From an uncultured virus (IMG/VR IMGVR_UViG_3300035698_035306) (lineage: Duplodnaviria > Heunggongvirae > Uroviricota > Caudoviricetes): a DNA stretch of 64,000 nt. The notes below the pieces were generated by a model. That model ran no database searches. It worked only from the letters and a program-made list of their open reading frames with translations, and was not told where the DNA came from. Shown one piece after another: positions 9,482 through 33,500 of the stretch (positions within the stretch are counted from its first letter, which is position 1; every line of letters begins with the position of its first letter). The stretch lies in the IMG/VR virus record IMGVR_UViG_3300035698_035306; one strand, 5' to 3'. The position numbers and the translations under genes are program-made.

Positions 9482-9565
9482 TGACCATAGAGAGACTCGA
9501 ACTCTCAAGCTTTTTAGAGCGGCAGATTCTTAGTCTGCTGTGTTTGCCAATTTCACCATACGGCC
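9482..9565 (-). tRNA. tRNA-Leu(AAG)
   Basis: GCAGA-CTAAGAA-TCTGC, long variable arm. Confidence 0.85.
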
Positions 9566-9584
9566 ATGGTTGTTTATTTATTTG

Positions 9585-9660
9585 TACCCCTGGTCGGATT
9601 CGAACCGACACAATCTCCTGGGTCTAAACCAGGCGCCTTTACCATTTTAACCACAGGGGT
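9585..9660 (-). tRNA. tRNA-Leu(TAG)
   Basis: Cloverleaf, loop TTTAGAC. Confidence 0.9.
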
Positions 9661-9685
9661 AGTTATTGTATTGCATCTATTGTTG

Positions 9686-9759
9686 TATTCCTAGTGAGAT
9701 TCGAACTCACACTGAACGGGGCTTAAACCCGATGCCTCTGCCAGTTGGGCTACAGGAAC
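9686..9759 (-). tRNA. tRNA-Leu(TAA)
   Basis: Loop TTTAAGC. Confidence 0.88.
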
Positions 9760-9764
9760 ATGTT

Positions 9765-10079
9765 CTATTTATATCTTTCAAGAACTCTTGCTCTTTTTTC
9801 AGGAGACATTTTACAAAGAACGTTTTCTCCTGGTGGTCGTGAACTTCTTTCACCACCATAAGTAATTAAAAATTCGTATTCACCATTTTCTTCAAAATGT
9901 TTAGATTTAATCTTCTGCCAATATTCGTGACTTAATAAATGCACTTCAATTGTTTTGTGATATTCATTATAGGTTAGATTATATCTTTCACCTACAATAA
10001 CAAACTCAACAAGCTTCATATTATAACCTTGTTCTTCTATTTGCTTTAATACATTAGTTATTATATTTGTTGTTTCCAT
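9765..10079 (-). CDS. hypothetical protein within tRNA operon
   Basis: ORF track. Confidence 0.6.
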   Translation of the reverse strand: METTNIITNVLKQIEEQGYNMKLVEFVIVGERYNLTYNEYHKTIEVHLLSHEYWQKIKSKHFEENGEYEFLITYGGERSSRPPGENVLCKMSPEKRARVLERYK

Positions 10080-10222
10080 TATCTTTAGTATTTAGCTACC
10101 AGAGTAGCAATTTATATTACTTTTCAGTGATTTTAGCTACCAGGGTAGCTATGTTTATAATAGACCATATATGAGTCATTTCTGTAATATTTCAGTGAAA
10201 TTGCTCATATATGAGTCATTTG

Positions 10223-10308
10223 TAGCCCGAATCGGAATCGAACCGACACGTCCATTACTGAACACTGGATTTTAAGTCCAGCGCGTCTACCAGTTTCACC
10301 ACCGGGCC
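10223..10308 (-). tRNA. tRNA-Leu(TAA)
   Basis: Loop CTTAAAA, long variable arm. Confidence 0.92.
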
Positions 10309-10321
10309 GTCTTTATTATTG

Positions 10322-10396
10322 AGCAGTATAACAGATTCGAACTGTCACCTTCTGGGTGGAAGCCAGATATGCTTTGCCGTTAAACACCAATACTGC
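10322..10396 (-). tRNA. tRNA-Gly(TCC)
   Basis: Loop CTTCCAC. Confidence 0.88.
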
Positions 10397-10439
10397 AGTT
10401 GTCAAGGACAAAATGTCTTATAGAATGTCCTTGATACTG

Positions 10440-10512
10440 AGCGAAATGTGGGAATCGAACCCCGTCCTCTGGTTGGAAACCAGATGCTTTCAGCCATTAA
10501 GCTACATCTCGC
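10440..10512 (-). tRNA. tRNA-Gly(TCC)
   Basis: Loop TTTCCAA. Confidence 0.88.
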
Positions 10513-10584
10513 ATGGAGTTGCTAACTTCTAACAAATGAATAAATTCACTTTAAAGATGGGGAGTTAAAAGCCAACAACAGTTG

Positions 10585-10657
10585 AGCAGAATACCAGATT
10601 CGAACTGGCGTTTCCAGATTGGCAACCTGGTGCACTAACCAACTATGCTAATTCTGC
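10585..10657 (-). tRNA. tRNA-Gly(GCC)
   Basis: Loop TTGCCAA. Confidence 0.9.
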
Positions 10658-10662
10658 GTTTG

Positions 10663-10734
10663 CTCCTCGACAAGGGGTCGAACCTTGGACCTACTGGTTA
10701 ACAGCCAGTTGCTCTACCACTGAGCTATCGAGGA
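10663..10734 (-). tRNA. tRNA-Asn(GTT)
   Basis: Loop CTGTTAA. Confidence 0.93.
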
Positions 10735-10738
10735 ATGT

Positions 10739-10918
10739 TTACATTAACATGAACTTAAGCTTTAATTTAGCTTTGTCATATTTACTTTTAGTTTTTTCAA
10801 ACTCTTCATTTGATACATTGTTCTTATAATTCGAACTCTGTACTCTTTTCTTTAAAAATTCAACATATAATTTATGTTCTTCCAAAGAATTACGTTCCAC
10901 CTTTTTCTTTGTTTTCAT
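10739..10918 (-). CDS. small basic protein, 59 aa (MKTKKKVERNSLEEHKLYVEFLKKR...)
   Basis: Translated by hand; fills the gap between two tRNA-Asn genes. Confidence 0.6.
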   Translation of the reverse strand: MKTKKKVERNSLEEHKLYVEFLKKRVQSSNYKNNVSNEEFEKTKSKYDKAKLKLKFMLM

Positions 10919-10992
10919 GAGGGCCGGGAGAATTTCGAAATCTCGACATCTAGGTTAACGGCCTAGTGCTCTGCCTCTGAGCTACCAACCCA
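10919..10992 (-). tRNA. tRNA-Asn(GTT)
   Basis: Loop CCGTTAA. Confidence 0.82.
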
Positions 10993-10996
10993 TGTG

Positions 10997-11069
10997 AGCT
11001 TACGAACGGGGTCGAACCGATGACCGGCTCATTACAAGTGAGCTGCTCTACCAACTGAGCTACGCAAGC
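10997..11069 (-). tRNA. tRNA-Thr(TGT)
   Basis: Loop CTTGTAA. Confidence 0.92.
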
Positions 11070-11160
11070 ATTTTAAAAAGTGTAATAAGATGCACAAAAT
11101 ACATTAAATCCTGTCAGGTTTAATATAAATGAATCCCGTTGTGCATCATAATACACCTTG

Positions 11161-11233
11161 AGCTGTGAATGAGATTTGAACTCATGACCTTTTCCGTACC
11201 AGGGAAACGCTCTTCCAACTGAGCTATCAAAGC
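11161..11233 (-). tRNA. tRNA-Thr(GGT)
   Basis: Loop CTGGTAC. Confidence 0.9.
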
Positions 11234-11237
11234 AAGT

Positions 11238-11361
11238 ATACTACTAAAAGTTGTTTGTGACTGTGTTCAAGACAGTTGCCTAACCACTTGGCTATCTACG
11301 CTATTAGCGTGGAATTGGATTCGAACCAATGTTACTAGATTTTAGTTATTCTAAGTAGTAT
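11238..11361 (-). ncRNA. Y-RNA-like ncRNA: ACUUAGAA stem enclosing a circularly permuted tRNA (T arm, looped acceptor stem, D arm, anticodon arm)
   Basis: ATACTACTTAGAATAACTAAAA...ATTGGTTCGAATCCAAT TCCACGC-TAATA-GCGTAGA TAGCCAAGTGGTTAGGC ACTGT-CTTGAAC-ACAGT...TTTTAGTAGTAT. Confidence 0.75.
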
Positions 11362-11364
11362 TTG

Positions 11365-11436
11365 CCGGCAACGGGAGATTCGAACTCCAAACTTCGGCGT
11401 GACAGGCCGATATGTTACCATTACACTACGCTGCCG
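11365..11436 (-). tRNA. tRNA-Asp(GTC)
   Basis: Loop CTGTCAC. Confidence 0.9.
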
Positions 11437-11453
11437 TTGTAGTATATTATTAG

Positions 11454-11537
11454 AGCAGATAGTTGGATTCGAACCAACGTGGAATTACTTCAGCGGATTT
11501 GCAATCCGCCGCCTTCGACCTCTCGACCATATCTGCA
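11454..11537 (-). tRNA. tRNA-Cys(GCA) with long variable arm
   Basis: Loop TTGCAAA, U73. Confidence 0.85.
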
Positions 11538-11624
11538 TTTTAATAAAGCTGTCGGTTATCTTTTTTAAAAACTCAGCAGGAACCTTGTTTATAAAAAATC
11601 CTGATGATAACCTTTCAGCGTTAG

Positions 11625-11696
11625 TGGAGCTTACGGTAATCGAAACCGTGTCTTCTGGGTGCAAGCCAAATGTAATAGCCACTATACGAAAGCCCC
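11625..11696 (-). tRNA. tRNA-Ala(TGC)
   Basis: GGGGCTT acceptor with G3.U70, loop CTTGCAC. Confidence 0.9.
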
Positions 11697-11741
11697 GTTT
11701 TAGTTTTTTGATTGTCCAATAGAAACTAATAAACTATTTGG

Positions 11742-11810
11742 CGGTACCGAAGGGTATCGAACCCTCTCATCCAGCAGAGACAGTGCCGGCGCTTACCATC
11801 AGCCGATACC
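11742..11810 (-). tRNA. tRNA-Asp(GTC), atypical
   Basis: CCGGCA-CTGTCTC-TGCTGG; short D region. Confidence 0.65.
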
Positions 11811-11816
11811 AAATAG

Positions 11817-11898
11817 AGGAGGATAACGGAATCGAACCGTCTGCACGAATGCAGGCCTAGCGTTCAAAACTAGTTAAGCACCTGGCTTGCTATCCTCC
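11817..11898 (-). tRNA. tRNA-Ser(TGA)
   Basis: Loop TTTGAAC, long variable arm. Confidence 0.8.
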
Positions 11899-11911
11899 AT
11901 GGATAGTTTTG

Positions 11912-11996
11912 AGGAGAATACTGGAATTGAACCAGTGCAACGATTAAGTTGGACTCGGTTTAGCAAACCGGCACATTACCACTCTGTCAATTCTCC
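11912..11996 (-). tRNA. tRNA-Ser(GCT)
   Basis: Loop TTGCTAA, long variable arm. Confidence 0.88.
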
Positions 11997-12055
11997 ATAG
12001 ATACAATACGTCAAAGAACTATTTGTTCTAATTTTTTTTGCTTAGGTTTATTCCT

Positions 12056-12093
12056 AAAAAAAGTCTGGTTAAAAATTAATTTAGCCAGACTTT
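12056..12093 (-). terminator. attenuator terminator 1
   Basis: AAAGTCTGGCTAAA-loop-TTTAACCAGACT+T7. Confidence 0.85.
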
Positions 12094-12116: not shown

Positions 12117-12236
12117 TCATATTCGAATATCTGGCTTCACGTTCCCTGCATCAGCATTACAATCACTGCCTAAGGCTAGCGATAACGTCGATGTCAACGT
12201 GTTTAAGAGATTTGATATGTTAGTAATTGTCTTCAT
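12117..12236 (-). promoter_or_regulatory. leader peptide 1 MKTITNISNLLNTLTSTLSLALGSDCNADAGNVKPDIRI
   Basis: Codons 8-32 encode only S,N,L,T,A,G,D,C, the tRNAs downstream; AGCCAGA antiterminator. Confidence 0.85.
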
Positions 12237-12336
12237 TTGTTTGTTGTTTATATATTGTTGTTTGTTTGATGTTCTATACTAAAGTATCACAAAGTTTCGC
12301 AATAATTAAGTTTATTTCTGTTTTAATTACGTTTTT

Positions 12337-12594: not shown

Positions 12595-12631
12595 AATCTA
12601 ATTACTTTTTATAACTAGATTATATATTGTG

Positions 12632-12704
12632 TTGGCCCTACCGGAATCGAACCGATGACCTTTTCGTTATGAGCGAACTGCTCTACCAACTGAGCTAAGG
12701 GCCA
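12632..12704 (-). tRNA. tRNA-Ile2(CAT), probable lysidine AUA reader
   Basis: GGCCCT acceptor, loop CTCATAA, elongator-type body. Confidence 0.75.
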
Positions 12705-12772
12705 ATGTCGCAATGTACTCCCCACATTAAAAGTTTATCTAAAGAGCTTTCCTTTAAATCTGGCATTGCGTG

Positions 12773-12844
12773 TAGCCCCAAGGAGAATCGAACTCCTATT
12801 TACAGGTTGAAAACCTGGCGTCCTAACCGTTAGACGATGGGGCC
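12773..12844 (-). tRNA. tRNA-Glu(TTC)
   Basis: Loop TTTTCAA. Confidence 0.9.
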
Positions 12845-12905
12845 ATGTATATTAACTAAGAAGGTTGGTTAAACCTTGAACCATAATGTCATAGTTAATA
12901 AATGG

Positions 12906-12979
12906 TTGGTCTGGAGGGGCTCGAACCCTCGACCCGATGATTAAGAGTCACCTACTCTGCCAACTGAGCTACAGACCAA
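12906..12979 (-). tRNA. tRNA-Lys(CTT)
   Basis: Loop CTCTTAA. Confidence 0.88.
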
Positions 12980-12989
12980 TGTATTATAG

Positions 12990-13062
12990 TAACCCATACG
13001 AGATTCGAACTCGTGACTTCAGATTGAAGGTCTGACGGCTTAACCAGCTTGCCGAATGGGCT
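12990..13062 (-). tRNA. tRNA-Glu(TTC)
   Basis: Loop CCTTCAA. Confidence 0.85.
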
Positions 13063-13067
13063 ATTTG

Positions 13068-13135
13068 TAACCATACAAGGAATCGAACCTCAATTTCTGC
13101 TGCAGACAGCGTCCTAACATTGGACGATATGATTA
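13068..13135 (-). ncRNA. Glu-like tRNA mimic with shortened anticodon arm
   Basis: Intact D and T arms; GCTGTCTGCAGC in place of a 7-nt anticodon loop. Confidence 0.55.
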
Positions 13136-13140
13136 AATAG

Positions 13141-13208
13141 AATTTCACTAATAGTTAACGTGTCAAATTAAAAGTTTGGTGTTTGTTTTTAGTTTTCTAA
13201 GTGAAATT
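13141..13208 (-). ncRNA. ACUUAGAA-stem ncRNA
   Basis: AATTTCACTTAGAAAACTAA...TTAGTGAAATT. Confidence 0.7.
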
Positions 13209-13212
13209 ATAG

Positions 13213-13299
13213 TAACCCCGCTGGGACTCGAACCCAGGACTCCTCGGTTAAAAGCCGAGTGCTCTACACCTTTCGGATATCCAACTGAGCTACGGAGTT
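13213..13299 (-). tRNA. tRNA-Lys(TTT) with a hairpin inserted in the D loop
   Basis: Loop CTTTTAA; D loop contains ATATCC-GAAA-GGTGT. Confidence 0.85.
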
Positions 13300-13337
13300 A
13301 TTATTAGTTATCAATATTTTAAAGAACTTGTTTTAGT

Positions 13338-13410
13338 AGCGCATACGAGAATCGAACTCGTGTTCCCACCGTGAAAGGGTGATGTCCTTAAACCACTAGA
13401 CGAATGCGCC
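13338..13410 (-). tRNA. tRNA-Glu(TTC)
   Basis: Loop CTTTCAC. Confidence 0.88.
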
Positions 13411-13416
13411 ATTTAG

Positions 13417-13489
13417 TTACTCATCTCAGGTTCGAACTGAGGACTCCCTGGTTAAAAGCCAGGTGCTCTACCAACTGAGCTAATGAGTA
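13417..13489 (-). tRNA. tRNA-Lys(TTT)
   Basis: Loop CTTTTAA. Confidence 0.9.
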
Positions 13490-13536: not shown

Positions 13537-13572
13537 AAAAAAAGCCTGAAGAGTAATTCTTCAGGCTTGTTA
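13537..13572 (-). terminator. attenuator terminator 2
   Basis: TAACAAGCCTGAAGA-ATTAC-TCTTCAGGC+T7. Confidence 0.88.
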
Positions 13573-13593: not shown

Positions 13594-13683
13594 TTAATCT
13601 GCGTGTTTATCTAACAAGCCTGCAGGTTCCTTCTCCTTTTTTATAGAAGTTGTTATTGCTGATATGTTAGTTAAGTTTCTCAT
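13594..13683 (-). promoter_or_regulatory. leader peptide 2 MRNLTNISAITTSIKKEKEPAGLLDKHAD
   Basis: ATA AAA AAG GAG AAG GAA control codons; CAGGCTTGTTA antiterminator. Confidence 0.88.
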
Positions 13684-13780
13684 TGTGTTTATTATTATCG
13701 TTGTTTATATATTGTTGTTTGTTTGATTGTTCTATACTAAAGTAAGCATTTGTTTCGCAATACCAAAGTTTATTTCTGAT

Positions 13781-15302: not shown

Positions 15303-15613
15303 AATAGACGAGGTAATTAGGCTCCTGTTACGTTTTTCAACGTCAACAACATTTGTCTATTCTCCTCAACCCGACTATTATAGACCGTTGCTAAATCTAA
15401 GTCTGTTTGAGTTTCACTCCGGTAGTGAAAACGATTGATTATGGGTCTTTCGGGGTTACTGGTTTGTAAGGTGGTACTATTAACCCTTTTTCCTTTTGTC
15501 TTCCAGTTACCTGGTTTTGGTAACCTTACCTAACAGCTTTAACTATCAATCTCCTACCTGCACTTTAGTGGCCAAATTTCCTCTCCGTAGAGCGTTGTTG
15601 TCACTCGTCTATT
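15303..15613 (-). ncRNA. rnpB: RNase P RNA (compact)
   Basis: P1 AATAGACGAG/CTCGTCTATT; CR-I GAGGAAATTTGGC; P2 CAACAAC/GTTGTTG; CR-IV TAGACAAATG; CR-V AACAGGAGCCTAATTA. Confidence 0.8.
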
Positions 15614-18320: not shown

Positions 18321-18429
18321 ATCTAACTAAAAAATTTTAATGCCGGGATTGAACCAGCGACCTTTTTGTGATTAGCAAAATGCTCTACCAACTGAGCGAA
18401 TTAAATTGTTTAGTTGTTCTAAGTTAGAT
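18321..18429 (-). ncRNA. Y-RNA-like ncRNA: ACUUAGAA stem extending a tRNA-like cloverleaf
   Basis: ATCTAACTTAGAACAACTAAA..GCTCAGTTGGTAGAGC..TTTTG-CTAATCA-CAAAA..GCTGGTTCAATCCCGGC..TTTAGTTAGAT. Confidence 0.75.
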
Positions 18430-18433
18430 ATTA

Positions 18434-18570
18434 GGTGGCGAGGGGTGGATTCTAACCACCGATATCAATCGTATGAAAATTGTGCATTAACTTTAAACTA
18501 ATGTTTATGTTTTCTAAGTGGTATACTTGTAAAACCACTATAAGTGTTTGTTTTACTGTGCTACCTCGCC
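18434..18570 (-). ncRNA. tRNA-like RNA (CAT loop) with the ACUUAGAA module inserted in the D loop
   Basis: GGCGAGG/CCTCGCC acceptor, GGTGG-TTAGAAT-CCACC T arm, insert TAGTGG..CCACTTAGAAAAC. Confidence 0.7.
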
Positions 18571-18634
18571 ATAATTAAAAATGAATTTCTATGCACCTTA
18601 CTGGTCTATGAACATTCTAACGGTCCCGTATATC

Positions 18635-19093
18635 TTAAAGTGTCTTCTGAAGTTCCTTAAGTTGCGCTTTCGCTTCAACTAGTTTTTCATCAGCTGACTT
18701 GTTTGCTTCAATGAAGCCTTCAAGTTCTTTCACTTTGTTTTTGTTGTTTCTGTACTCAGAAGTACTTCTTCTATATCTTAAAGCTGCTCTAAGGAAGATA
18801 TACATATCTAAGTGCGTGTACTTTACATTTTCATCAAGTTCTGTCTTAATAACAAATGATGTTGATGTGTCTCCTAAGAAGTCATCATTACAGGCAGTAT
18901 TAATTACTCTTGCAAGTTCAAGCATTTTAAGCTTAACTGACTTCTCTGAATATAATGAAGCTTTCATAAGGTCTGCCCATGTTGCTACATCACCTGAAGT
19001 AAATTTTCCCATTGTTACACCAACGCCGTGTTCCTTGAACTTTACGGTTACTTCTTTTTCTTTTTCTATTGTAATTGTGTTAAAATCGTACAT
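18635..19093 (-). CDS. hypothetical protein
   Basis: ORF track; in the Val/Ile-TROVE operon. Confidence 0.7.
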   Translation of the reverse strand: MYDFNTITIEKEKEVTVKFKEHGVGVTMGKFTSGDVATWADLMKASLYSEKSVKLKMLELARVINTACNDDFLGDTSTSFVIKTELDENVKYTHLDMYIFLRAALRYRRSTSEYRNNKNKVKELEGFIEANKSADEKLVEAKAQLKELQKTL

Positions 19094-19124
19094 AGTTTTT
19101 CTTTCTTTTTAAAGTTTTTAATTG

Positions 19125-19198
19125 TAGGAATACCTGGGCTCGAACCAGGGGCCTTCTCGGTATCAGCGAGATGCTCTAACCAACTGAGCTATACTCCT
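19125..19198 (-). tRNA. tRNA-Ile(GAT)
   Basis: Loop CTGATAC. Confidence 0.92.
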
Positions 19199-19207
19199 AA
19201 GTGTATA

Positions 19208-19411
19208 TTACACTTTCTTCATTTTCATTACCTGCACCGGCTTAGTACCATCAAATGCTACTTTGTAAACAAAGCCTTTGAAATTCACAGGTAAATCATC
19301 TGCTGTGTAACAATCGTTCCATACTGGACTGTTATTGATATTCTTGCCGAAGTTCTTATCTTCTACTTTAGAATATACTGATTCTGTTGTTAATTTTGCG
19401 TTCTTTCCCAT
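19208..19411 (-). CDS. hypothetical protein
   Basis: ORF track. Confidence 0.6.
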   Translation of the reverse strand: MGKNAKLTTESVYSKVEDKNFGKNINNSPVWNDCYTADDLPVNFKGFVYKVAFDGTKPVQVMKMKKV

Positions 19412-19436
19412 CTTTAATCTTTTTAAATTTGTTTGT

Positions 19437-19508
19437 AGTTCCTATCGGGATTGAACCGATGACCTCTTGCATGTAAGGCAAGCGCTACTTCCACTGAGCT
19501 AAGGAACT
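19437..19508 (-). tRNA. tRNA-Val(TAC)
   Basis: Loop CTTACAT. Confidence 0.92.
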
Positions 19509-19616
19509 ATGAATATCATGGCACAACCCGATGCAATTCATTTTGTAAGTACATTTCTGTACTGCGCACATATAGTAGTGATTCTTAAGTCTTCCTATAT
19601 GACATCTTCATGATAG

Positions 19617-19691
19617 TAGTCTCTAACGGATTCGAACCGTTGACTTCCTCGGTGTAAACGAGGTGCTCTGAACCAACTGAGCTAAGAGACT
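19617..19691 (-). tRNA. tRNA-Val(TAC)
   Basis: Loop TTTACAC. Confidence 0.92.
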
Positions 19692-19711: not shown

Positions 19712-19748
19712 AAAAAAATCCAATCGGCTATTTGCTGACTGGATTTTA
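19712..19748 (-). terminator. attenuator terminator 3
   Basis: AAAATCCAGTCAGC-AAATA-GCCGATTGGA+T7. Confidence 0.85.
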
Positions 19749-19797
19749 AAATTTCTTTGGGTTCTATATGTTGATAAAAAACTTTCTTAAATCCAAT

Positions 19798-19884
19798 CTA
19801 TGCGCAAATAATACTTTCCACTACGATGACAGCTACTGTTTCAGTAGAGCGTATAGGGACGATATTTTTTAAATTGCGTTGCAT
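19798..19884 (-). promoter_or_regulatory. leader peptide 3 MQRNLKNIVPIRSTETVAVIVVESIICA
   Basis: V/I-rich; GATTGGATTT antiterminator overlapping the stop codon. Confidence 0.85.
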
Positions 19885-21201: not shown

Positions 21202-21207
21202 ACTTTG

Positions 21208-22312: not shown

Positions 22313-22346
22313 TGTTTTTTCAATAATTTAAAGAACTTATTATTTG

Positions 22347-23746: not shown

Positions 23747-23820
23747 AATACTTATTTATTTTTCTAATGTAAATCTATATATTTATTTCGCAATAAAAAA
23801 GAAATGCATTATTCAAATTG

Positions 23821-23895
23821 TCGGGGTAGCAGGATTCGAACCTGCGACCTCCTGCTCCCAAAGCAGGCGCGATGACCGGACTACGCTATACCCCG
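23821..23895 (-). tRNA. tRNA-Pro(TGG)
   Basis: Loop TTTGGGA. Confidence 0.93.
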
Positions 23896-23921
23896 ATTGT
23901 ATTATATATTCAAAGAACAGT

Positions 23922-23999
23922 TGATGGGTCAGAAGGACTTGCACCTTCACTAACTAGTATACCACCTCAACGGCAGTCGCGGCTTCTATGCCTGTCCCA
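23922..23999 (-). ncRNA. degenerate tRNA-like RNA
   Basis: TGGGACA/TGACCCA acceptor, GAAGG-TGCAAGT-CCTTC T arm. Confidence 0.4.
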
Positions 24000-24007
24000 A
24001 TGTTTTG

Positions 24008-24081
24008 TCGAATAGGTGAGATTCGAACTCACGAACCGATACGTCCAAGGTACCGTTGTATAGCCTCTGCATAACTACTCG
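24008..24081 (-). tRNA. tRNA-Pro(TGG)
   Basis: Loop CTTGGAC. Confidence 0.75.
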
Positions 24082-24088
24082 AAATTTG

Positions 24089-24164
24089 TCTGAGAGGTGA
24101 GATTCGAACTCACGAACACTTGCTTCCAAAGCAAGTCCGTATAACCAACTGCAGGAACTCCCAG
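24089..24164 (-). tRNA. tRNA-Pro(TGG)
   Basis: Loop TTTGGAA. Confidence 0.8.
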
Positions 24165-24344
24165 ATATTATTTAGTTTTTAATTTATCAACTTCGTTTCT
24201 CAATTCTACTATTTTTTGAAATAACGAAATTCTTAATTTTCTATTTTTACAAGCCTTAAATTCACTTATCATTTTCTTCAATGATTTTAGTTTTTGAATT
24301 AATATGAGATTTTTTCTTGTAAGCATATTAAATTGTTTATTTTG

Positions 24345-24416
24345 TGATTCTACCAGGACTCGAACCTGGACAAAGAGTTTAGAAGACTCTTGTGCTATCC
24401 ATTACACTATAGAACC
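24345..24416 (-). tRNA. tRNA-Arg(TCT)
   Basis: Loop CTTCTAA. Confidence 0.92.
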
Positions 24417-24543
24417 ATATACAACGTTTAGTCTGATAACCTTGCGAAGAGTTGTTGTATTTGCACGAATGCATACTACTTTTTCTAATAAGGCATGGTA
24501 ACATTATTAGATATGGAAGTCTTTACACATTGCTCCCGTTTTA

Positions 24544-24617
24544 GTGACGCAGACTGGAATCGAACCAGTGACACATGGATTTTCAGTCCATTGCTCTACC
24601 TTCTGAGCTACTGCGCC
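24544..24617 (-). tRNA. tRNA-Phe(GAA)
   Basis: Loop CTGAAAA. Confidence 0.92.
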
Positions 24618-24656
24618 ATCTAAATAATATTTATCAATACGTGAAAGAACAATTGT

Positions 24657-24738
24657 GGTACCGGGTAGAATCGAACTACCGACCTCTGGCGTTTCAAACC
24701 AGCACTCTATGCATATAGCTCCACTGAGTTACGGCACC
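24657..24738 (-). tRNA. tRNA-Phe(GAA) with enlarged D loop
   Basis: Loop TTGAAAC. Confidence 0.82.
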
Positions 24739-25404
24739 ATGATTTTCAATATCCCTTTTAAACCATATTTCTAATTTATGGCCTTTATCTCTTACTGCTT
24801 GCCATTTTAAATAATCTTTTTCTTGTACTCTTCCTTTTACTTCTAAATAATAAAAAGTACCATCATTTTCAAAAATCTTAAAATCTATTAAATACGAATG
24901 ATTCTTATTATCTAATCCAATATATGTAAATTTGTCATTTGTATATTCCCAATCTTTAATCTTTTTATTTTCTTTCCAATCATCTAAAATCAAACATGTA
25001 TTTAATTCATATGAACCTTGTACTTTTATATTTTTATATTTAATCCACTTTGTATAACCGCCTGTCTGTTTAATTCTACCTGATTTTATACCATTCTTTC
25101 TTGTTGTACTTATATTTTCTCTATGCTTAGCTGATAATTTATTATTTTTATTTCTATAACTTATATGACATGAGCCTGAACAGAATTTTTGTTTATTTCT
25201 TTTAGATGATTTTACATTAAATTCATCTTTACAATTCTTACAAATAAGAGTAACAAATTTTGTTGAAATTCCCATTCTTGTTAATCTTACTTTTGCTTTA
25301 AATTCTTTTGTTCGTATACCTCTACTATTAGCACACTTTAATGAACAAAATCTTCCACTTCCATAAGAACCATCATGTTCAATATTACACCTTTCACAAA
25401 TCAT
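24694..25404 (-). CDS. putative homing endonuclease: Zn-binding repeats + TnsA-like PD-(D/E)XK domain
   Basis: CxxC...FCSxxC twice; GSYE...YLIDF...LEVKG; very AT-rich; reads into tRNA-Phe. Confidence 0.75.
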   Translation of the reverse strand: MICERCNIEHDGSYGSGRFCSLKCANSRGIRTKEFKAKVRLTRMGISTKFVTLICKNCKDEFNVKSSKRNKQKFCSGSCHISYRNKNNKLSAKHRENISTTRKNGIKSGRIKQTGGYTKWIKYKNIKVQGSYELNTCLILDDWKENKKIKDWEYTNDKFTYIGLDNKNHSYLIDFKIFENDGTFYYLEVKGRVQEKDYLKWQAVRDKGHKLEIWFKRDIENHGAVTQWSYMHRVLV

Positions 25405-25470: not shown

Positions 25471-25506
25471 AAAAAAAGTCCAACTTCATAAATGAGGTTG
25501 GACTTC
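25471..25506 (-). terminator. attenuator terminator 4
   Basis: AAGTCCAACCTCAT-TT-ATGAAGTTGGAC+T7. Confidence 0.85.
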
Positions 25507-25530: not shown

Positions 25531-25608
25531 CTAATACCCTATACTAACCTCCTGAGTGACTCTTGGTCTCGGAAAAAATCTAAATGATATGTTAGTAGTT
25601 GTGTTCAT
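25531..25608 (-). promoter_or_regulatory. leader peptide 4 MNTTTNISFRFFPRPRVTQEVSIGY
   Basis: TTT AGA TTT TTT CCG AGA CCA AGA control codons; GAGGTT antiterminator. Confidence 0.9.
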
Positions 25609-25695
25609 GTTAATGTTTATTATATATTGTCTATTATTAATTGTTCTATACTAAAGTAAGACAAAGTTTCGCTATTTGAAAGTATTTTTCTGTTT

Positions 25696-27161: not shown

Positions 27162-27783
27162 TTTTCAAAAATTTAATCCATGTTATTAATCCTGATGTAG
27201 CTAACATTGAGAATAAGAAATATTCTACTGACATAAATAAAATACCCTTTAATATGTAGAGTACAATACAAACGATGTCAACTGATATCCATAAAACCCA
27301 AGTTTCAATTTTCTTTTGAGCCATTAAAACAACTGCTATTATACTTGCAGTAGTTGTAAATGCATCGAAATATGGGTAAGCAGCTGGCTGACTGAAGAAC
27401 TGTGGTAGCATCTCATGTATGTGTGACATATAACTTCCTATAAATATCGTCCCAGCTGTGACTAAAAATAGCACTAGAGTAATTTGATTCTTATCTAATC
27501 TACTTATAGTTTTCTTTGCATCTTTTTTACTCCAATTTATCCAACCGTATATTCCTATAATTATAAACCAGACTTGTAGAAACATGTCGGAATACAAATT
27601 TACTTGATAAAATAGAATTAAGAATGCAGCTGCATTAATAATACCAATTGGCCAAGTCAGAACATTAGCCCTGACACTGTACCAAACACATATCAGACCA
27701 GTAATAGTTCCGATAAGTTCTATTAAGCTGACCTGATATCCAAGTACTTCAAATAATACGTTATGAATACTTATAATGTCCAT
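27136..27783 (-). CDS. pnuC: PnuC nicotinamide riboside transporter
   Basis: WPIGI, YGWINW, DAFTT, KKIETWVLWISVD; multiple TM segments. Confidence 0.92.
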   Translation of the reverse strand: MDIISIHNVLFEVLGYQVSLIELIGTITGLICVWYSVRANVLTWPIGIINAAAFLILFYQVNLYSDMFLQVWFIIIGIYGWINWSKKDAKKTISRLDKNQITLVLFLVTAGTIFIGSYMSHIHEMLPQFFSQPAAYPYFDAFTTTASIIAVVLMAQKKIETWVLWISVDIVCIVLYILKGILFMSVEYFLFSMLATSGLITWIKFLKNEKRTSIR

Positions 27784-29789
27784 TTAAGTGATATGTAAAA
27801 GTTTGTTGGAGCTTGAACGAAATATCTTGCATCTCCATATACGTTTAAGTGACCATGAGAATAATATTTCTGATTAGTCAAATTATTTCCTCTTACTGTT
27901 ATGTCAAATTGGTGAAATTTATAACCAACAGCTGCATTGATTGTATAAAATTCTGGAAGTTCTAAATCATTACCAAAATCTAAATAAGACTTACTTTGAT
28001 ATCTTGCATTGAAACATAGATATAAATTCTTATATTTGTAATAGAAGTCTTGATTAACAATTATTGCTGGAGTTAGAATAGGTTCAAATTGTACACCATC
28101 TTCTGTAATACGATTCATCGAGAATGATGAGTTATTACGTACTCCAAATCTTTTAGTTAAATCATATTGAACATCTAATTCAATACCACTCTTAGTACTT
28201 TCAGCTACGTTACTATGTAATGCAATTCCATTTGGGCCGAATTGACCATTAAGTGCTATTTCATTCTCAAATTGCATATGATATAAGTTAGCAAATATAT
28301 GACCTTTCTTTGCAAAGTATCTATAACCAAGTTCGTGGTCGAGTACTTCTTCTGGTACGATGTTACTATAGATACCGTTACCTAAGCTATCACTCATTAA
28401 GTTATCTTCACCATAGAATATATCAGTACGTGATGGTTCTCGTGATGTAGTTCCTATACTGTAGTAGAAAGTATTCTTACCCATTTTGTATTGTAAACCT
28501 GCATGTGGTGTAATAAAGTCCCATTGCATTTTGTCCATTGTAGCATCACCTTCATATGAAAATTCAGCATGTCTATAACTAACATCTGCAAAAAATACTA
28601 AGCCTTTAATATCATAAGTTGCTTTAGCGAATCCACTGTATTCATTTTTAGTTCCAGTATTAGTATACAGTTCACCGATTTTAGCTTCTGAACCTAAGTG
28701 AGTTCTTTGAAACGTATTACCATGTATTCCTGTATAGAATTTAAAAGCTTTATTAGTATATGAATAATTTACAAAAGCTCCAACAAAGTTATGTACTAAG
28801 TTATAATTATAGACTGCACTGTCGATAGCACCTTCTGGTAATTCTAAGAAAGCATTCAAATCAAAATCATAATTTCCTTGAAGGTGATTATAATAGACTG
28901 TGCTTGAAAGTTTTGACTTATCAGATATAAAGTATGTATGTTGTAACTTAACTAAGCTCTGTAAGAAATTATCTTTCTCATTTTCGAAATTTGTATTATA
29001 TCGCGGGTTAGCTTTAAGTGAATCCATTGGACTTCCTAGCCATACCATATCATTTTTCTGATGTCCTATAAAACCTGTAAGCTTTAAAAGGTGTTTGTTC
29101 TTTACATATCCAGTACTGAATAGAACAGAACGTGAGTCATTTCCTGAATGTTCTTTATAACCATCAGTATGTATGTTTGAACCTCTTATATAGAACCCAA
29201 AGTTCTTTCTTTTACCGCTGTAATATTCTACATACTCTCGATGTGTATTATAAGAACCGTAGTCAATTCCAACTTGTAATGATGTATCTCCAAATAAGAG
29301 CGGGGATTGAAAGTTAATACTTCCTCCGTAACTTGCAACACCATTTGAAGATGTTCCAATACCTCTTTGTATTTGAATAGAACTTACTGAATTTATAAAA
29401 TCTGGATAGTTATTAAAGTAGACTCCCTGGTCTTCACCTTCATTAAGCGGAACGCCATCCCATGTCATGTTAATTCTGGTCTGGTCTATACCTCTTAAAC
29501 GGAAGTATGAATAACCTACCATATTCCCAGCATCTGAATAACTGTTTACACTTGGAGTTTGATTTAAAAGGAATGCAGGTTCCTGACCAACACTCTTTTC
29601 GTTTAACTCTTTAGCGTCAATATTCTTGTACGTGATTGGAGTACTCTTATTAGCTCGATAGAATGTTATTACGCATTCTTCTAATAACACGGCATCTGTT
29701 GAATCAGGAACCGCAGTAGTGTCTGTTTGCGCGAAACTCAACGTCGCTGCAAATAATAGACTAAATAATAGTAATGTGAATTTCTTCAT
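27771..29789 (-). CDS. TonB-dependent outer-membrane receptor
   Basis: Signal peptide; plug RLRGIDQTRIN...SIQIQRG...GGSINF; beta-barrel with NNLTNQKY and C-terminal W-T-L. Confidence 0.92.
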   Translation of the reverse strand: MKKFTLLLFSLLFAATLSFAQTDTTAVPDSTDAVLLEECVITFYRANKSTPITYKNIDAKELNEKSVGQEPAFLLNQTPSVNSYSDAGNMVGYSYFRLRGIDQTRINMTWDGVPLNEGEDQGVYFNNYPDFINSVSSIQIQRGIGTSSNGVASYGGSINFQSPLLFGDTSLQVGIDYGSYNTHREYVEYYSGKRKNFGFYIRGSNIHTDGYKEHSGNDSRSVLFSTGYVKNKHLLKLTGFIGHQKNDMVWLGSPMDSLKANPRYNTNFENEKDNFLQSLVKLQHTYFISDKSKLSSTVYYNHLQGNYDFDLNAFLELPEGAIDSAVYNYNLVHNFVGAFVNYSYTNKAFKFYTGIHGNTFQRTHLGSEAKIGELYTNTGTKNEYSGFAKATYDIKGLVFFADVSYRHAEFSYEGDATMDKMQWDFITPHAGLQYKMGKNTFYYSIGTTSREPSRTDIFYGEDNLMSDSLGNGIYSNIVPEEVLDHELGYRYFAKKGHIFANLYHMQFENEIALNGQFGPNGIALHSNVAESTKSGIELDVQYDLTKRFGVRNNSSFSMNRITEDGVQFEPILTPAIIVNQDFYYKYKNLYLCFNARYQSKSYLDFGNDLELPEFYTINAAVGYKFHQFDITVRGNNLTNQKYYSHGHLNVYGDARYFVQAPTNFYISLKWTL

Positions 29790-30937: not shown

Positions 30938-30987
30938 GCCGTATACTTATTTTTATTATATATCAGCTTTATTTAGTTAACTCTTTG

Positions 30988-31061
30988 CACGCCTGGTAGG
31001 AATCGAACCTACAACCACTGGTTTTGGAGACCAGCATTCTACCTAATTGAACTACAGACGT
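30988..31061 (-). tRNA. tRNA-Trp(CCA)
   Basis: Loop CTCCAAA. Confidence 0.92.
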
Positions 31062-31079
31062 GTATAGTTTATATGTTAG

Positions 31080-31149
31080 CACGCCTGGCAGGAATCGAAC
31101 CCGCTTACCGAGGGGTTGGAATCCTGGTTGCTGCCGTTGCATCAGACGT
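31080..31149 (-). tRNA. tRNA-Trp(CCA), atypical
   Basis: Loop TTCCAAC. Confidence 0.65.
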
Positions 31150-31153
31150 ATGT

Positions 31154-31223
31154 TGGGACCTTAATAGGAATTGAACCTACGTTAAACCATCATTGCAGTG
31201 CGCATATCTGCTAATAAAGTCCA
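31154..31223 (-). ncRNA. degenerate tRNA-like RNA
   Basis: GGACTTT/AAGGTCC acceptor, TAGGTTCAATTCCTA T arm. Confidence 0.4.
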
Positions 31224-31226
31224 TTT

Positions 31227-31301
31227 GGGTGAAGGACGAGAATCGAACTCGCGACGACCAGAACCACAATCTGGCGCTCTACCTACTGAGCTACCTCCAC
31301 C
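31227..31301 (-). tRNA. tRNA-His(GTG)
   Basis: Loop TTGTGGT. Confidence 0.92.
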
Positions 31302-31308
31302 ATGTTAA

Positions 31309-31500
31309 TTATTCAAGTTCACTATCAATGAACTTCTTTACATCTTGTTTTTCTGAACGCTTTTCACTTCTGTATTCGCGTTTCAAATCTTCAAGATGTG
31401 CCTTTCTGTGACGGGTACTTTCAAAACTAAGATTTTTCATGTCACGTTTCTTATCTTTAATAGCTTCTCTTTTCTGTCTGTAATACTTATCGTTTTTCAT
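31309..31500 (-). CDS. small basic coiled-coil protein (MKNDKYY...)
   Basis: ORF between the two His tRNAs. Confidence 0.6.
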   Translation of the reverse strand: MKNDKYYRQKREAIKDKKRDMKNLSFESTRHRKAHLEDLKREYRSEKRSEKQDVKKFIDSELE

Positions 31501-31516
31501 TACAATTTTTATTTTG

Positions 31517-31603
31517 GGTGAAGGACGAGATTCGAACTCGCGACCTCTCGGTTCACAGCCGAGTGCTCTAAGCTTTCGCAAACCAACTGAGCTACAATCA
31601 CCA
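31517..31603 (-). tRNA. tRNA-His(GTG) with a GC-GAAA-GC hairpin in the D loop
   Basis: Loop CTGTGAA. Confidence 0.85.
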
Positions 31604-31615
31604 TGTTAGTTATTA

Positions 31616-31729
31616 GGTGGGGCAGGCACGATTTAACATGCTATCTTCAAATTTACGGTTTGTTGCTTAGTTTTTAAGTTTTCTAAGTGAAGTATATGAC
31701 GTCACTAATTTTTATTTAGCTTCTGCCCC
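31616..31729 (-). ncRNA. tRNA-like RNA (GTA loop) with the ACUUAGAA module in the D loop
   Basis: GGGGCAG/CTGCCCC acceptor; insert TTAGTGA..TCACTTAGAAAACT. Confidence 0.7.
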
Positions 31730-31734
31730 ATATG

Positions 31735-31817
31735 TGTGCCAGATTGGATTCGAACCAATGTACTCCGAAGAGACCGGATTTACAGTCCGGCGCCTTTAAC
31801 CGCTCAGCCACTGACAC
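31735..31817 (-). tRNA. tRNA-Tyr(GTA)
   Basis: Loop CTGTAAA, long variable arm. Confidence 0.93.
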
Positions 31818-31828
31818 ATATTTAATTG

Positions 31829-31897
31829 TGGGACGAGTAGGAATCGAACCTACCTGCTAGAGGGTTACAACCTCGGCTATCGCCTTGAGACCGTCCC
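31829..31897 (-). tRNA. tRNA-Tyr(GTA), atypical short form
   Basis: GAGG-TTGTAAC-CCTC. Confidence 0.6.
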
Positions 31898-31931
31898 AAT
31901 TAAATTTTTATTGCAAGAAAAGAAAGAACAT

Positions 31932-31973
31932 AAAAAAAGCCTAAAGAACATTTTGAGAATGTAGCTTTAGGCT
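31932..31973 (-). terminator. attenuator terminator 5
   Basis: AGCCTAAAG..ACATT-CTCAA-AATGT..CTTTAGGC+T7. Confidence 0.85.
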
Positions 31974-32010
31974 GTTATATTTGAAAGGAGGTGCTGTGAT
32001 TTATCTACCG

Positions 32011-32088
32011 TCAATTTAACATTATACTACACTCTTGGTTTTGATACCAATAATGATGAAGTGCGTTATGTATGTTTAAATTGTTCAT
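32011..32088 (-). promoter_or_regulatory. leader peptide 5 MNNLNIHNALHHYWYQNQECSIMLN
   Basis: CAT CAT TAT TGG TAT control codons; AGAGTGTAGT antiterminator. Confidence 0.9.
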
Positions 32089-32178
32089 TGTTTCTATTTG
32101 TTAAGATATTATATATCTATGTTTGTTTGTTATTCTATACTAAAGTAAGATAAAGTTTCGCAATTTGAAAGCTTTTTC

Positions 32179-32802
32179 TTAGAATCTTTTATTTTTCTTT
32201 CTATTTTTCTTATAATTTCTTCTTTCTCTACTACTATTTAAGATGTCTCTACGTTCATCATTTCTTACAAGATGTTCTCGGTTATATAATTCCGCTTTGA
32301 CCTGCTTACGTGTAACGTGAGTACCTTCTATGTACAAATCTTTATCTACTGTATGATACTCGTCATACTCGTAGTAATAATAAGAACGTGCTGAGCGTTG
32401 TAAGAATGCTAATAATCTTTTCGTATCAATCTTCTTTAAGACTTCAGGTATTTCTACCTTGCTCATATCTTGTTTTGTTCTTTGCCAAGCTTTAACGTTT
32501 TCGTAATACTTAAATCCAGTTGATACATCGCATGTACCGTCTTTATTTACTTTTCTTACAATTCCGCCAACTTGTTTAAAGCTACCATTTACTTTAACTC
32601 TAATGCTACAAGTTTCATCTATCTCAAATACATGAGGTTCGTATGTACTATAACATCGTGATGGGTGTTGTTTACGTTTAAGTGCAACATCTTTCTGTTG
32701 TCTTAATGACCAAAGTTTTTCCCAATGTTCGATTGATAAATGTTTCTCTGAGATATCTCTCTCATTATATAATTTTTCTAATGCTTCTGTTTCTATACTC
32801 AT
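32179..32802 (-). CDS. hypothetical protein with a basic C-terminal tail
   Basis: ORF track. Confidence 0.7.
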   Translation of the reverse strand: MSIETEALEKLYNERDISEKHLSIEHWEKLWSLRQQKDVALKRKQHPSRCYSTYEPHVFEIDETCSIRVKVNGSFKQVGGIVRKVNKDGTCDVSTGFKYYENVKAWQRTKQDMSKVEIPEVLKKIDTKRLLAFLQRSARSYYYYEYDEYHTVDKDLYIEGTHVTRKQVKAELYNREHLVRNDERRDILNSSRERRNYKKNRKKNKRF

Positions 32803-32968
32803 AATATTGCTTAATTTTTAATTTAACATTACTTGGCTAATATACCAAATGTTTTTGACTTACCAAAGTGTTTCTGTAAAAATCTATGCAACAATCATGA
32901 CGTTATTCCTTTTTAATTATTTTTATATTACTAATGTACTAATTTATCTCGCAATAAAAAAGTATTTG

Positions 32969-33038
32969 TCGCGTACATCAGGTTCGAACTGATTTATCGC
33001 AGGATATGAGCCCGTGACCTTTTCCTCTAAGCTACGCA
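32969..33038 (-). tRNA. tRNA-Met(CAT), elongator, atypical
   Basis: Loop CTCATAT. Confidence 0.65.
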
Positions 33039-33046
33039 ATATTTAG

Positions 33047-33119
33047 AAGCTCTACACAGAATCGAACTGTGGTCTTCTGGTTCAAAACCAGGTGTAATTA
33101 CCGTTATACGATAGAGCAA
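33047..33119 (-). tRNA. tRNA-Gln(TTG)
   Basis: Loop TTTTGAA. Confidence 0.85.
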
Positions 33120-33123
33120 TATG

Positions 33124-33194
33124 TTGTCTTACAAGGATTCGAACCTTGAACGCCTGGACCAAAACCAGATGTGTTACCATTACACCATAAGACA
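33124..33194 (-). tRNA. tRNA-Gln(TTG)
   Basis: Loop TTTTGGT. Confidence 0.9.
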
Positions 33195-33204
33195 ATGTTT
33201 TTTG

Positions 33205-33276
33205 TTGCTCTGCCAAGATTCGAACTTGGGCTACCTGATTCAAAGTCAGGTGTGTTAACCTCTACACTACAGAGCA
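33205..33276 (-). tRNA. tRNA-Gln(TTG)
   Basis: Loop CTTTGAA. Confidence 0.9.
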
Positions 33277-33293
33277 GTTTTTCGATTAAACCT

Positions 33294-33325
33294 AAAAAAA
33301 GGCTTAAGAAGTAAATCTTAAGCCA
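33294..33325 (-). terminator. attenuator terminator 6
   Basis: GGCTTAAGA-TTTACT-TCTTAAGCC+T7. Confidence 0.88.
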
Positions 33326-33352
33326 TCGTTTATGTAAAATATTTTATATCAA

Positions 33353-33424
33353 CTATGAACCTAAGAATTTCCCAACAGTTTGCTGTTGTTGCATTTGCAT
33401 AGTATATTGATAAGTTCTAGTCAT
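33353..33424 (-). promoter_or_regulatory. leader peptide 6 MTRTYQYTMQMQQQQTVGKFLGS
   Basis: ATG CAA ATG CAA CAA CAG CAA control codons; TCTTAGGTT antiterminator. Confidence 0.9.
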
Positions 33425-33444
33425 TGTTTCTATTTGTTTGAGTA

Positions 33445-33500
33445 TTATATATTGTTGTTTGTTTGATTGTTCTATACTAAAGTAAGATAAAGTTTCGCAA
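33445..33500 (-). promoter_or_regulatory. tandem promoter cassette TTGCGA-N-TACTTTAGTATAG followed by ATATA(T)A; also at ~12250-12303, 13706-13760, 25620-25672, 32110-32163
   Basis: Near-identical sequence upstream of five of the six leaders. Confidence 0.75.

Follow-up and report, generated by a model that had tools for sequence, protein, structure and literature searches.

The 64,000-nucleotide (nt) stretch of DNA analysed here, from the uncultured virus IMGVR_UViG_3300035698_035306 (hereafter the window, meaning the whole stretch), contains 43 transfer RNA (tRNA) genes called by ARAGORN, every one on the minus strand. tRNA genes are usually seen as constitutive or growth-rate controlled, and those of phages as codon supplements or as decoys for anticodon nucleases. 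We propose that the window probably carries six paralogous ribosome-mediated (leader-peptide) transcription attenuators, each of which would gate one block of phage tRNAs. We speak of a phage on the basis of gene content, since the window has no recognised structural phage gene.

Six leader cassettes precede the tRNA blocks

Reading the minus strand upstream of the tRNA blocks, with open reading frames (ORFs) located by script, we found six cassettes, named L1 to L6 after their leaders, that follow one layout: a promoter, an ORF of 23-39 codons, an intrinsic terminator and then a block of tRNAs. Together the six blocks hold 38 of the 43 ARAGORN tRNAs. All cassette coordinates below are on the minus strand, ORF lengths are in amino acids (aa), each leader ORF ends in a stop codon, and the antiterminator strands are predicted by complementarity.

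12272..12302, minus strand: L1 promoter cassette (TTGCGAAAC ... CTTTAGTATAGAA)
12117..12236, minus strand: L1 leader ORF, 39 aa, MKTITNISNLLNTLTSTLSLALGSDCNADAGNVKPDIRI
12128..12137, minus strand: L1 antiterminator strand AAGCCAGAT, pairing with the terminator 5' arm; duplex -13.7 kcal/mol, equalled by 0.027 of 300 shuffles
12056..12090, minus strand: L1 intrinsic terminator, hairpin 12063-12090 and T7
9481..11996, minus strand: tRNA block 1, 15 tRNAs, namely Ser(GCT), Ala, Cys, Asp, two Thr, two Asn, three Gly and four Leu
13730..13760, minus strand: L2 promoter cassette
13594..13683, minus strand: L2 leader ORF, 29 aa, MRNLTNISAITTSIKKEKEPAGLLDKHAD; sensor run SIKKEKE (TCT ATA AAA AAG GAG AAG GAA)
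13607..13626, minus strand: L2 antiterminator strand CCTGCAGGCTTGTTAGATAA; -23.3 kcal/mol, equalled by 0 of 300 shuffles, z -8.3
13537..13568, minus strand: L2 intrinsic terminator
12631..13489, minus strand: tRNA block 2, 7 tRNAs, namely Lys(TTT), three Glu, Ser(AGA), Lys(CTT) and a CAT tRNA (Met or Ile2)
19798..19884, minus strand: L3 leader ORF, 28 aa, MQRNLKNIVPIRSTETVAVIVVESIICA
19783..19804, minus strand: L3 antiterminator strand, spanning the stop codon; -14.8 kcal/mol, equalled by 0.007 of 300 shuffles
19712..19743, minus strand: L3 intrinsic terminator
18333..19691, minus strand: tRNA block 3, two Val(TAC), Ile(GAT), a 152-aa ORF, then Ile(AAT)
25644..25674, minus strand: L4 promoter cassette, TAGCGAAAC variant
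25531..25608, minus strand: L4 leader ORF, 25 aa, MNTTTNISFRFFPRPRVTQEVSIGY; sensor run FRFFPRPR (TTT AGA TTT TTT CCG AGA CCA AGA)
25532..25552, minus strand: L4 antiterminator strand (GGAGGTT...); -11.4 kcal/mol, equalled by 0.06 of 300 shuffles
25471..25503, minus strand: L4 intrinsic terminator
23820..25404, minus strand: block 4, an HNH endonuclease ORF (25404-24694), a GAA tRNA-like element (24656-24738), Phe(GAA), Arg(TCT) and three Pro(TGG)
32133..32163, minus strand: L5 promoter cassette
32011..32088, minus strand: L5 leader ORF, 25 aa, MNNLNIHNALHHYWYQNQECSIMLN; sensor run HHYWY
32012..32036, minus strand: L5 antiterminator strand AGAGTGTAG...; -14.8 kcal/mol, equalled by 0.003 of 300 shuffles
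31932..31972, minus strand: L5 intrinsic terminator
30987..31897, minus strand: tRNA block 5, two Tyr, a GTG tRNA-like element (31517-31601), His(GTG) and Trp(CCA)
33470..33500, minus strand: L6 promoter cassette
33353..33424, minus strand: L6 leader ORF, 23 aa, MTRTYQYTMQMQQQQTVGKFLGS; sensor run QMQMQQQQ
33350..33367, minus strand: L6 antiterminator strand, spanning the stop codon; -11.5 kcal/mol, equalled by 0.04 of 300 shuffles
33294..33324, minus strand: L6 intrinsic terminator
32970..33276, minus strand: tRNA block 6, three Gln(TTG) and a sub-threshold CAU tRNA-like element (32970-33037)

A reading of the sequence made earlier, without any searches (the sequence-only reading), had described six minus-strand arrays of promoter, leader, terminator and tRNAs, and the ORF, the hairpin with its T7 and the tRNAs were located at all six sites. 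In each cassette, a hairpin of -9.8 to -13.5 kcal/mol followed by T7 lies within 25-55 nt after the leader ORF (6/6). A uniform criterion picks out just 11 strong terminators over the 64 kb, six of which are the leader terminators.

The promoter elements TTGCGAAAC or TAGCGAAAC, together with CTTTAGTATAGAA, lie upstream of L1, L2, L4, L5 and L6, and form part of about 85 nt of promoter and CA-rich 5' untranslated region (UTR) common to these five cassettes, in which we read no ATG between the -10 box and that of the leader. This agrees with the single promoter cassette that had been attributed to five leaders; the region upstream of L3 is unlike the other five and no L3 promoter was identified there. 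The TNIS sequence said to be common to L1, L2 and L4 is likewise present, as ACTAACATATCA is exact in all three (four matches at up to one mismatch, against 0.88 expected). Because their N-termini are alike (NLTNIS-like), the six leaders have the appearance of paralogues whose middle part was retuned. Leaders are not the only users of the core promoter, since it also precedes a lipoprotein ORF and a transfer-messenger RNA (tmRNA) on another contig. On that contig (L001, 2501-3298, which equals L003 on the opposite strand and comes from the same samples), the core promoter stands before an ORF that has a lipoprotein-type signal sequence, MKKLFLALTIVAMFAFASC..., and after this ORF comes a tmRNA gene whose tag is GETTNKVAGETVMAMAV.

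A scan of the window with Rfam gave 46 matches, all of them tRNA, including five tRNA-like elements beyond the ARAGORN set. Two tRNA-like genes on the minus strand were missed by ARAGORN at its default settings, at 24656-24738 (57.6 bits in Rfam) and 31517-31601 (52.3 bits). In both, about 10 nt are inserted into the D-loop, and we read the anticodons as GAA (Phe) and GTG (His), respectively. The first overlaps the end of the HNH-type ORF (25404-24694) and the second the start of a small ORF (31581-31309).

Leader codons match the downstream tRNAs

To assess the agreement between each leader and the tRNAs that follow it, we took background frequencies from 7373 residues in 23 of the window's long ORFs. 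The correct pairing of leaders with blocks ranks first among the 720 permutations, at the amino-acid and codon level alike, with a summed Z of 21.9 for amino acids (next best 17.7) and 22.5 for codons (next best 17.2). The longest runs of residues belonging to the downstream set measure 25, 7, 4, 8, 5 and 4 for L1 to L6, with simulated p of 0/200000, 4.5e-3, 5.9e-3, 0/200000, 6e-5 and 1.5e-5, so that the runs of L2 and L3 are the weakest of the six. The 25-residue run of L1 is made solely of S, N, L, T, A, G, D and C. Single codons agree as well: AGA occurs three times in L4, whose block contains Arg(TCT), and L1 contains CTC and CTA, rare codons that make up 2% and 7% of Leu codons, respectively, and that fit the Leu(AAG) and Leu(TAG) tRNAs. 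The bias of leader codons towards the following tRNAs, as the sequence-only reading had it, is real and lies far past chance, with every in-set run at p <=5.9e-3.

The further claim that the leaders cover all 20 amino acids, with only Ile appearing twice, was overstated. No Met tRNA is called after L6, where the CAU tRNA-like element 32970-33037 reaches 18.4 bits against an Rfam cut-off of 29, and because this element falls below the cut-off, the matched sets are secure for 19 amino acids. Nor is Ile the sole repeat, because block 1 has a Ser(GCT) tRNA and block 2 a Ser(AGA) tRNA, and both cassettes contain Ser codons. Jointly, the six cassettes would serve at least 19 amino acids. The CAT tRNA of block 2, which may or may not be an AUA-reading Ile tRNA, is identical to Ile(GAT) at 54/75 positions, to the two other CAT tRNAs at 48/74 and 48/75, and to Val at 53/74.

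Leader ends are predicted to compete for the terminator arm

Each of the six leaders has, within its last ORF codons or across its stop codon, a segment complementary to the 5' arm of the terminator. The duplexes have energies between -11.4 and -23.3 kcal/mol, and depending on the leader, a share of 0 to 0.06 of the 300 shuffles gave a duplex as strong. The terminators at gene ends in the same window provide a natural control: upstream complementarity reaches z <= -2.0 in 6/6 leader terminators, as compared with 1/4 gene-end terminators.

We then folded each leader with a mask for the ribosome, using a footprint that reaches from -15 to +12 nt relative to the A site and a transcript cut before the 3' arm of the terminator. 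With the A site in or before the sensor run, the 5' arm is predicted to be sequestered at 45-100%, and once the ribosome is past the sensor run, sequestration drops to modelled lows of 7-27%. In the model, this behaviour of the arm is the geometry of stall-induced read-through. Folding therefore yields competing pairing at 6/6 sites, in line with the alternative terminator and antiterminator structures expected for each leader; this result is in silico, and L2 is imperfect at the stop codon.

Leaders without Shine-Dalgarno sequences and the probable host

The leaders lack a Shine-Dalgarno (SD) sequence, and so do the other genes of this phage, with an SD core in 0/52 long ORFs of the window. 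Upstream of the start codons of these long ORFs, positions -13 to -10 are A-rich. Because the long ORFs of the same phage are also SD-less, with this A-rich stretch, the SD-less leaders look like real genes of the window phage. The absence of SD cores, the A-rich positions and an ORF (54348-55022, plus strand) that carries the type IX secretion C-terminal sorting domain Por_Secre_tail (33.7 bits, cut-off 27) point to a Bacteroidota-type host with SD-independent initiation.

A proposed mechanism

Transcription of each cassette would start at a strong phage promoter, and a ribosome would enter at the first AUG of the A-rich, SD-less 5' UTR and translate the leader of 23-39 codons, in the middle of which it would meet a run of codons for the amino acids of exactly the downstream tRNAs. 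If decoding is fast, the ribosome would reach the end of the ORF and hide the antiterminator strand, the terminator hairpin with its U7 would form, and the tRNA block would stay off. If a cognate charged tRNA is scarce, the ribosome would stall in the sensor run, the antiterminator strand would pair with the 5' arm of the terminator, and the polymerase would read into the tRNAs. Because its products would relieve the stall, each cassette would act as a negative-feedback homeostat for one subset of tRNAs. Candidate triggers are the loss of host tRNAs during infection, anticodon nucleases, and the codon demand of an AT-rich phage.

The comparison with attenuation of the trp/his type drawn by the sequence-only reading holds up in silico, with a short ORF at the first ATG, a cognate sensor run, an intrinsic terminator and an antiterminator strand at the ORF end at all six sites. 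Beyond the anatomy, the codon match and the alternative pairings that can be read in the DNA itself, we infer that the leaders are translated and that read-through depends on stalling. We also think it rather likely that the window holds a six-channel, self-referential homeostat, in which each channel senses the decoding speed of its own codons and resupplies the tRNAs that have been lost, and that this is the most elaborate case of widespread, unpublished attenuator-controlled tRNA operons in Bacteroidota phages.

Cassettes of the same layout in an unrelated phage

No relative of the window phage was found. Among GenBank phages, megablast with 24 kb and blastn with 4.4 kb returned only tRNA-length matches, tblastn with a 502-aa ORF gave no match, and the RNA ligase matches at <=33% identity. 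In IMG/VR, a search with the promoter pattern gave 0 matches, two protein scans gave no relative, and a search with the 5'-UTR pattern gave a single match, without tRNA, which we judged to be due to chance. The promoter pattern occurs at 9 metagenome loci, seven of which are identical to the window, while two (L001 and L003) are the other region with the lipoprotein ORF and tmRNA described above. Scans of genome contigs with the TonB receptor and the NAPRTase encoded in the window gave no relative.

A cultured phage that is unrelated in sequence, Cellulophaga phage phi4:1 (KC821632), has 24 tRNA matches and two clear cassettes behind one repeated TTTG/TAnnTTTG promoter.

phi4:1 leader A: MKIQRLHLQELEQPIISGGTGV, terminator, then Pro, Glu, Gln, His, Leu, Leu and Arg
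phi4:1 second leader, within annotated gp075: MQLTKTGITVIDKTKGARAYLGDTVIG, terminator, then Ala, Lys, Ile, Gly, Met, Asp, Thr, Val, Arg, Met and Tyr

The antiterminator strands predicted at the two ORF ends have energies of -14.3 and -16.3 kcal/mol (0.033 and 0.007 of shuffles are as strong), and in leader A, the modelled sequestration of the arm falls from 81-91% to 3% directly past the run. It had been suggested that leader codons would co-vary with downstream tRNAs in related phages; such a match appears in the sequence-unrelated phi4:1. The third small coding sequence of phi4:1, gp076, which stands before Ser, Trp and Phe, shows no clear match.

The hypothetical protein gp075 of phi4:1 (L013 2490-2609, KC821632 87989-88108) is, as read here, a tRNA-operon leader. 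Its annotated TTG start falls in the -7 box of the promoter, and the GTG at L013:2526 is a likelier start. Neither Tenacibaculum phage PTm1 nor Cellulophaga phage phi46:3 has a tRNA.

Evidence against attenuation, and alternative explanations

Several observations weigh against attenuation as proposed above, the first of which concern the codons themselves. Over the whole L2 leader, enrichment is weak, with a binomial p of 0.3 at the amino-acid and 0.1 at the codon level, and the match at the codon level is incomplete, as 24/38 L1 codons are readable by block-1 tRNAs under simple wobble rules, as compared with 29/38 at the amino-acid level. The Ser codons TCA and TCG have no cognate phage tRNA, and 5/43 tRNAs stand behind no leader (CTA at 1392, Arg-ACG at 15209, two CAT at 21207-21369, and an odd tRNA at 22346). 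The better agreement of L1 by amino acid than by codon would suit a different signal for the same hardware, namely amino-acid starvation, sensed through uncharged tRNA, with the boost in tRNA as a starvation response. Classical attenuators work in this way, and a stalled ribosome reports on charged tRNA, so that missing and uncharged tRNA are indistinguishable to it. However, extra tRNA is no remedy for a shortage of amino acids, and the feedback would not be closed. Several leaders have isoacceptor-specific codons (AGA where the block has Arg(TCT); the rare CTC and CTA where it has Leu(AAG) and Leu(TAG)), and genes for tRNA repair lie around the blocks, both of which argue against starvation as the signal. 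We regard it as unlikely.

A second set of observations concerns a sequence, GTTCTTTNANNTATTG, that occurs 7 times in the window against 0.31 expected.

12004-12019, 13312-13327, 21018-21033, 21830-21845, 22321-22336, 22673-22688 and 24635-24650, minus strand: copies of GTTCTTTNANNTATTG

Most copies are 8-25 nt upstream of tRNA or tRNA-like genes; one lies between the L1 terminator and the first tRNA of block 1, and another before tRNA-Phe. A similar sequence precedes the tmRNA on L001, at about 2875-2890. GTTCTTTNANNTATTG could serve in processing or could be a second or internal type of promoter, and any tRNAs transcribed from it would be outside the gate, which is the main caveat to attenuation. 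GTTCTTTNANNTATTG also suits the view that the cassettes are independent small-peptide genes with terminators of their own, or transcriptional insulators, and that the tRNAs are made from other signals, of which GTTCTTTNANNTATTG would be an example; the conserved N-terminal part of the peptides among the paralogues is likewise in its favour. Yet on this view it is left unexplained why the variable parts of the peptides spell the amino acids of the downstream tRNAs, why the ORF ends are complementary to the terminator arm, and why the pattern recurs in the unrelated phi4:1. Moreover, GTTCTTTNANNTATTG precedes only a minority of the tRNAs and is absent from blocks 3, 5 and 6. We consider independent peptide genes or insulators quite improbable.

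Folding supplies the third set. Equilibrium folding favours the terminator in most states, and because of this, the switch has to be kinetic; we treat the equilibrium probability of the terminator as an uninformative measure. The folding of the six leaders gave no clear 1:2 anti-antiterminator hairpin. For the cut transcript without a ribosome, the predicted sequestration of the arm is 45-97%, and in the L2 model, the antiterminator strand is free again with the ribosome on the stop codon, and a ribosome stalled at any of the three final sensor codons (E, K, E) blocks it. The state without a ribosome and the stop-codon state of L2 mean that a simple trp scheme misfits some of the details, and they would accommodate a translation-dependent control of another logic, in which translation of the leader merely shields the transcript from Rho or nucleases, or in which fast translation opens the terminator in a positive feedback. 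Against this stand the position of the antiterminator strand, at the 3' end of the ORF in 6/6 cassettes, and the drop in modelled sequestration directly past the sensor run, and we find such logic highly improbable. Stall-dependent attenuation remains the reading that we prefer.

Comparative data add further reservations. With no relative in GenBank phages, IMG/VR, metagenome or genome contigs, there is no covariation among true homologues to draw on. Contigs from four DNA runs are identical to the window, and their leaders have no informative differences, so that the population is uniform and offers no natural variants. In the two stretches of crAss001 that were read, no cassette precedes the first tRNA, where we see a promoter and a 4-codon ORF and no terminator.

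Gene content and source of the window

The window is AT-rich (GC 31-40%), and its DNA is present in metagenome runs from a salt lake, with no RNA run among those listed. Genes for the repair of tRNA and the translation machinery (Rnl1-type RNA ligase, Tpt1, PTH2) flank the tRNA blocks, and HNH and T5orf172 endonucleases are also among the genes around the tRNAs.

513-809, 1477-2607, 15601-16077, 16377-18305 and 25696-26148, minus strand: a set comprising PTH2 peptidyl-tRNA hydrolase, Rnl1-type RNA ligase, a dual-specificity-phosphatase-like ORF, phrog_850 'RNA-binding protein' and Tpt1 RNA 2'-phosphotransferase
2671-6496 and 26187-29789, minus strand: a phage-encoded nicotinamide adenine dinucleotide (NAD) salvage set (isochorismatase/nicotinamidase-like, NAD synthase, NUDIX, NAPRTase, NadR-like and PnuC) and a 672-aa TonB-dependent receptor

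Some of the tRNAs are unusual in themselves. The tRNA at 1392-1464 (minus strand) has a CTA anticodon of the amber-suppressor type and is labelled tRNA-Pyl by ARAGORN. TAG is the stop codon of three leaders, L3, L4 and L6. Recoding of TAG was considered and set aside: with TAG translated as Gln, few ORFs in 48-64 kb become longer, and for this reason we see no sign of recoding in the window. Three tRNAs on the minus strand, Leu(AAG), Ser(AGA) and Ile(AAT) (9481-9565, 13212-13299 and 18333-18407), have A at the wobble position. In bacteria, A34 is typical only of Arg(ACG) and is unusual elsewhere. The tRNA at 22346-22418 (minus strand) has a 6-nt anticodon loop, an ARAGORN anticodon of 'ga' and a Phe-like look. 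About 280 nt upstream of it, at 22703-22715, is a promoter-like copy, CTTTAGTATCGAA, with no ORF between the two, and the region upstream of this tRNA (to about 22750) may form a structured leader or a non-coding RNA.

Implications and comparison with known systems

The sequence-only reading knew of no account of tRNA arrays under this form of control, and we found no description of leader-peptide attenuation of tRNA genes in the full-text literature searched, a body that does not extend to subscription literature, including the older papers on the tRNA region of phage T5. That a known mechanism, classical ribosome-mediated attenuation, is here newly applied to tRNA genes is well supported in silico. 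If true, it would represent a direct feedback on decoding capacity, split into six nearly non-overlapping amino-acid channels, and would account for phage tRNA genes that are sorted by amino acid. It would provide a sequence rule that predicts which tRNAs a phage handles as one unit, tie tRNA arrays to host defences that target tRNAs, and extend classical attenuation to SD-less translation of the Bacteroidota type and to non-coding products. With phi4:1, which is cultured on Cellulophaga baltica, the idea becomes directly testable.

The closest models are the leader-peptide attenuators of enterobacteria (thrL, ilvL of ilvGMEDA, leuL, hisL, pheL and trpL), above all the multivalent thr and ilv leaders. 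They share with the window cassettes a promoter, a short ORF with regulatory codons, alternative antiterminator and terminator structures, and an intrinsic terminator before the genes; in both, the strand that competes with the terminator lies at the end of the ORF, and one leader may sense several amino acids. The enterobacterial attenuators regulate enzymes, whereas the window cassettes would regulate tRNAs, a product that itself relieves the stall. A window leader would also sense up to 8 amino acids (L1), and the leaders are SD-less, show no clear 1:2 hairpin, reside in a phage genome and occur as six paralogous copies. None of the curated Rfam leader families (Trp_leader, His_leader, Thr_leader, Leu_leader and others) matches the window at gathering score.

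Attenuation is already known for a component of translation, as the pheM leader controls pheST, which encodes phenylalanyl-tRNA synthetase. In pheM-pheST, too, a leader peptide controls a component of translation through the decoding of codons for its own amino acid; however, the target is a protein-coding synthetase gene on a bacterial chromosome, and the system involves a single amino acid and a single copy. The T-box riboswitch (RF00230), which has no Rfam match in the window, likewise ties transcription antitermination to the state of a specific tRNA, but its ligand is the uncharged tRNA itself, recognised by means of a specifier codon and the T-box sequence, and it needs no ORF, while the window has ORFs that look translated. 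The cassettes of phi4:1 are alike in layout, in the match of amino acids between leader and tRNAs, and in a Bacteroidota-type host. They have no sequence similarity to those of the window, and their promoter is of the TTTG/TAnnTTTG type; phi4:1 has two clear cassettes with large, mixed sets of tRNAs, whereas the window has six, with sets that are nearly non-overlapping.

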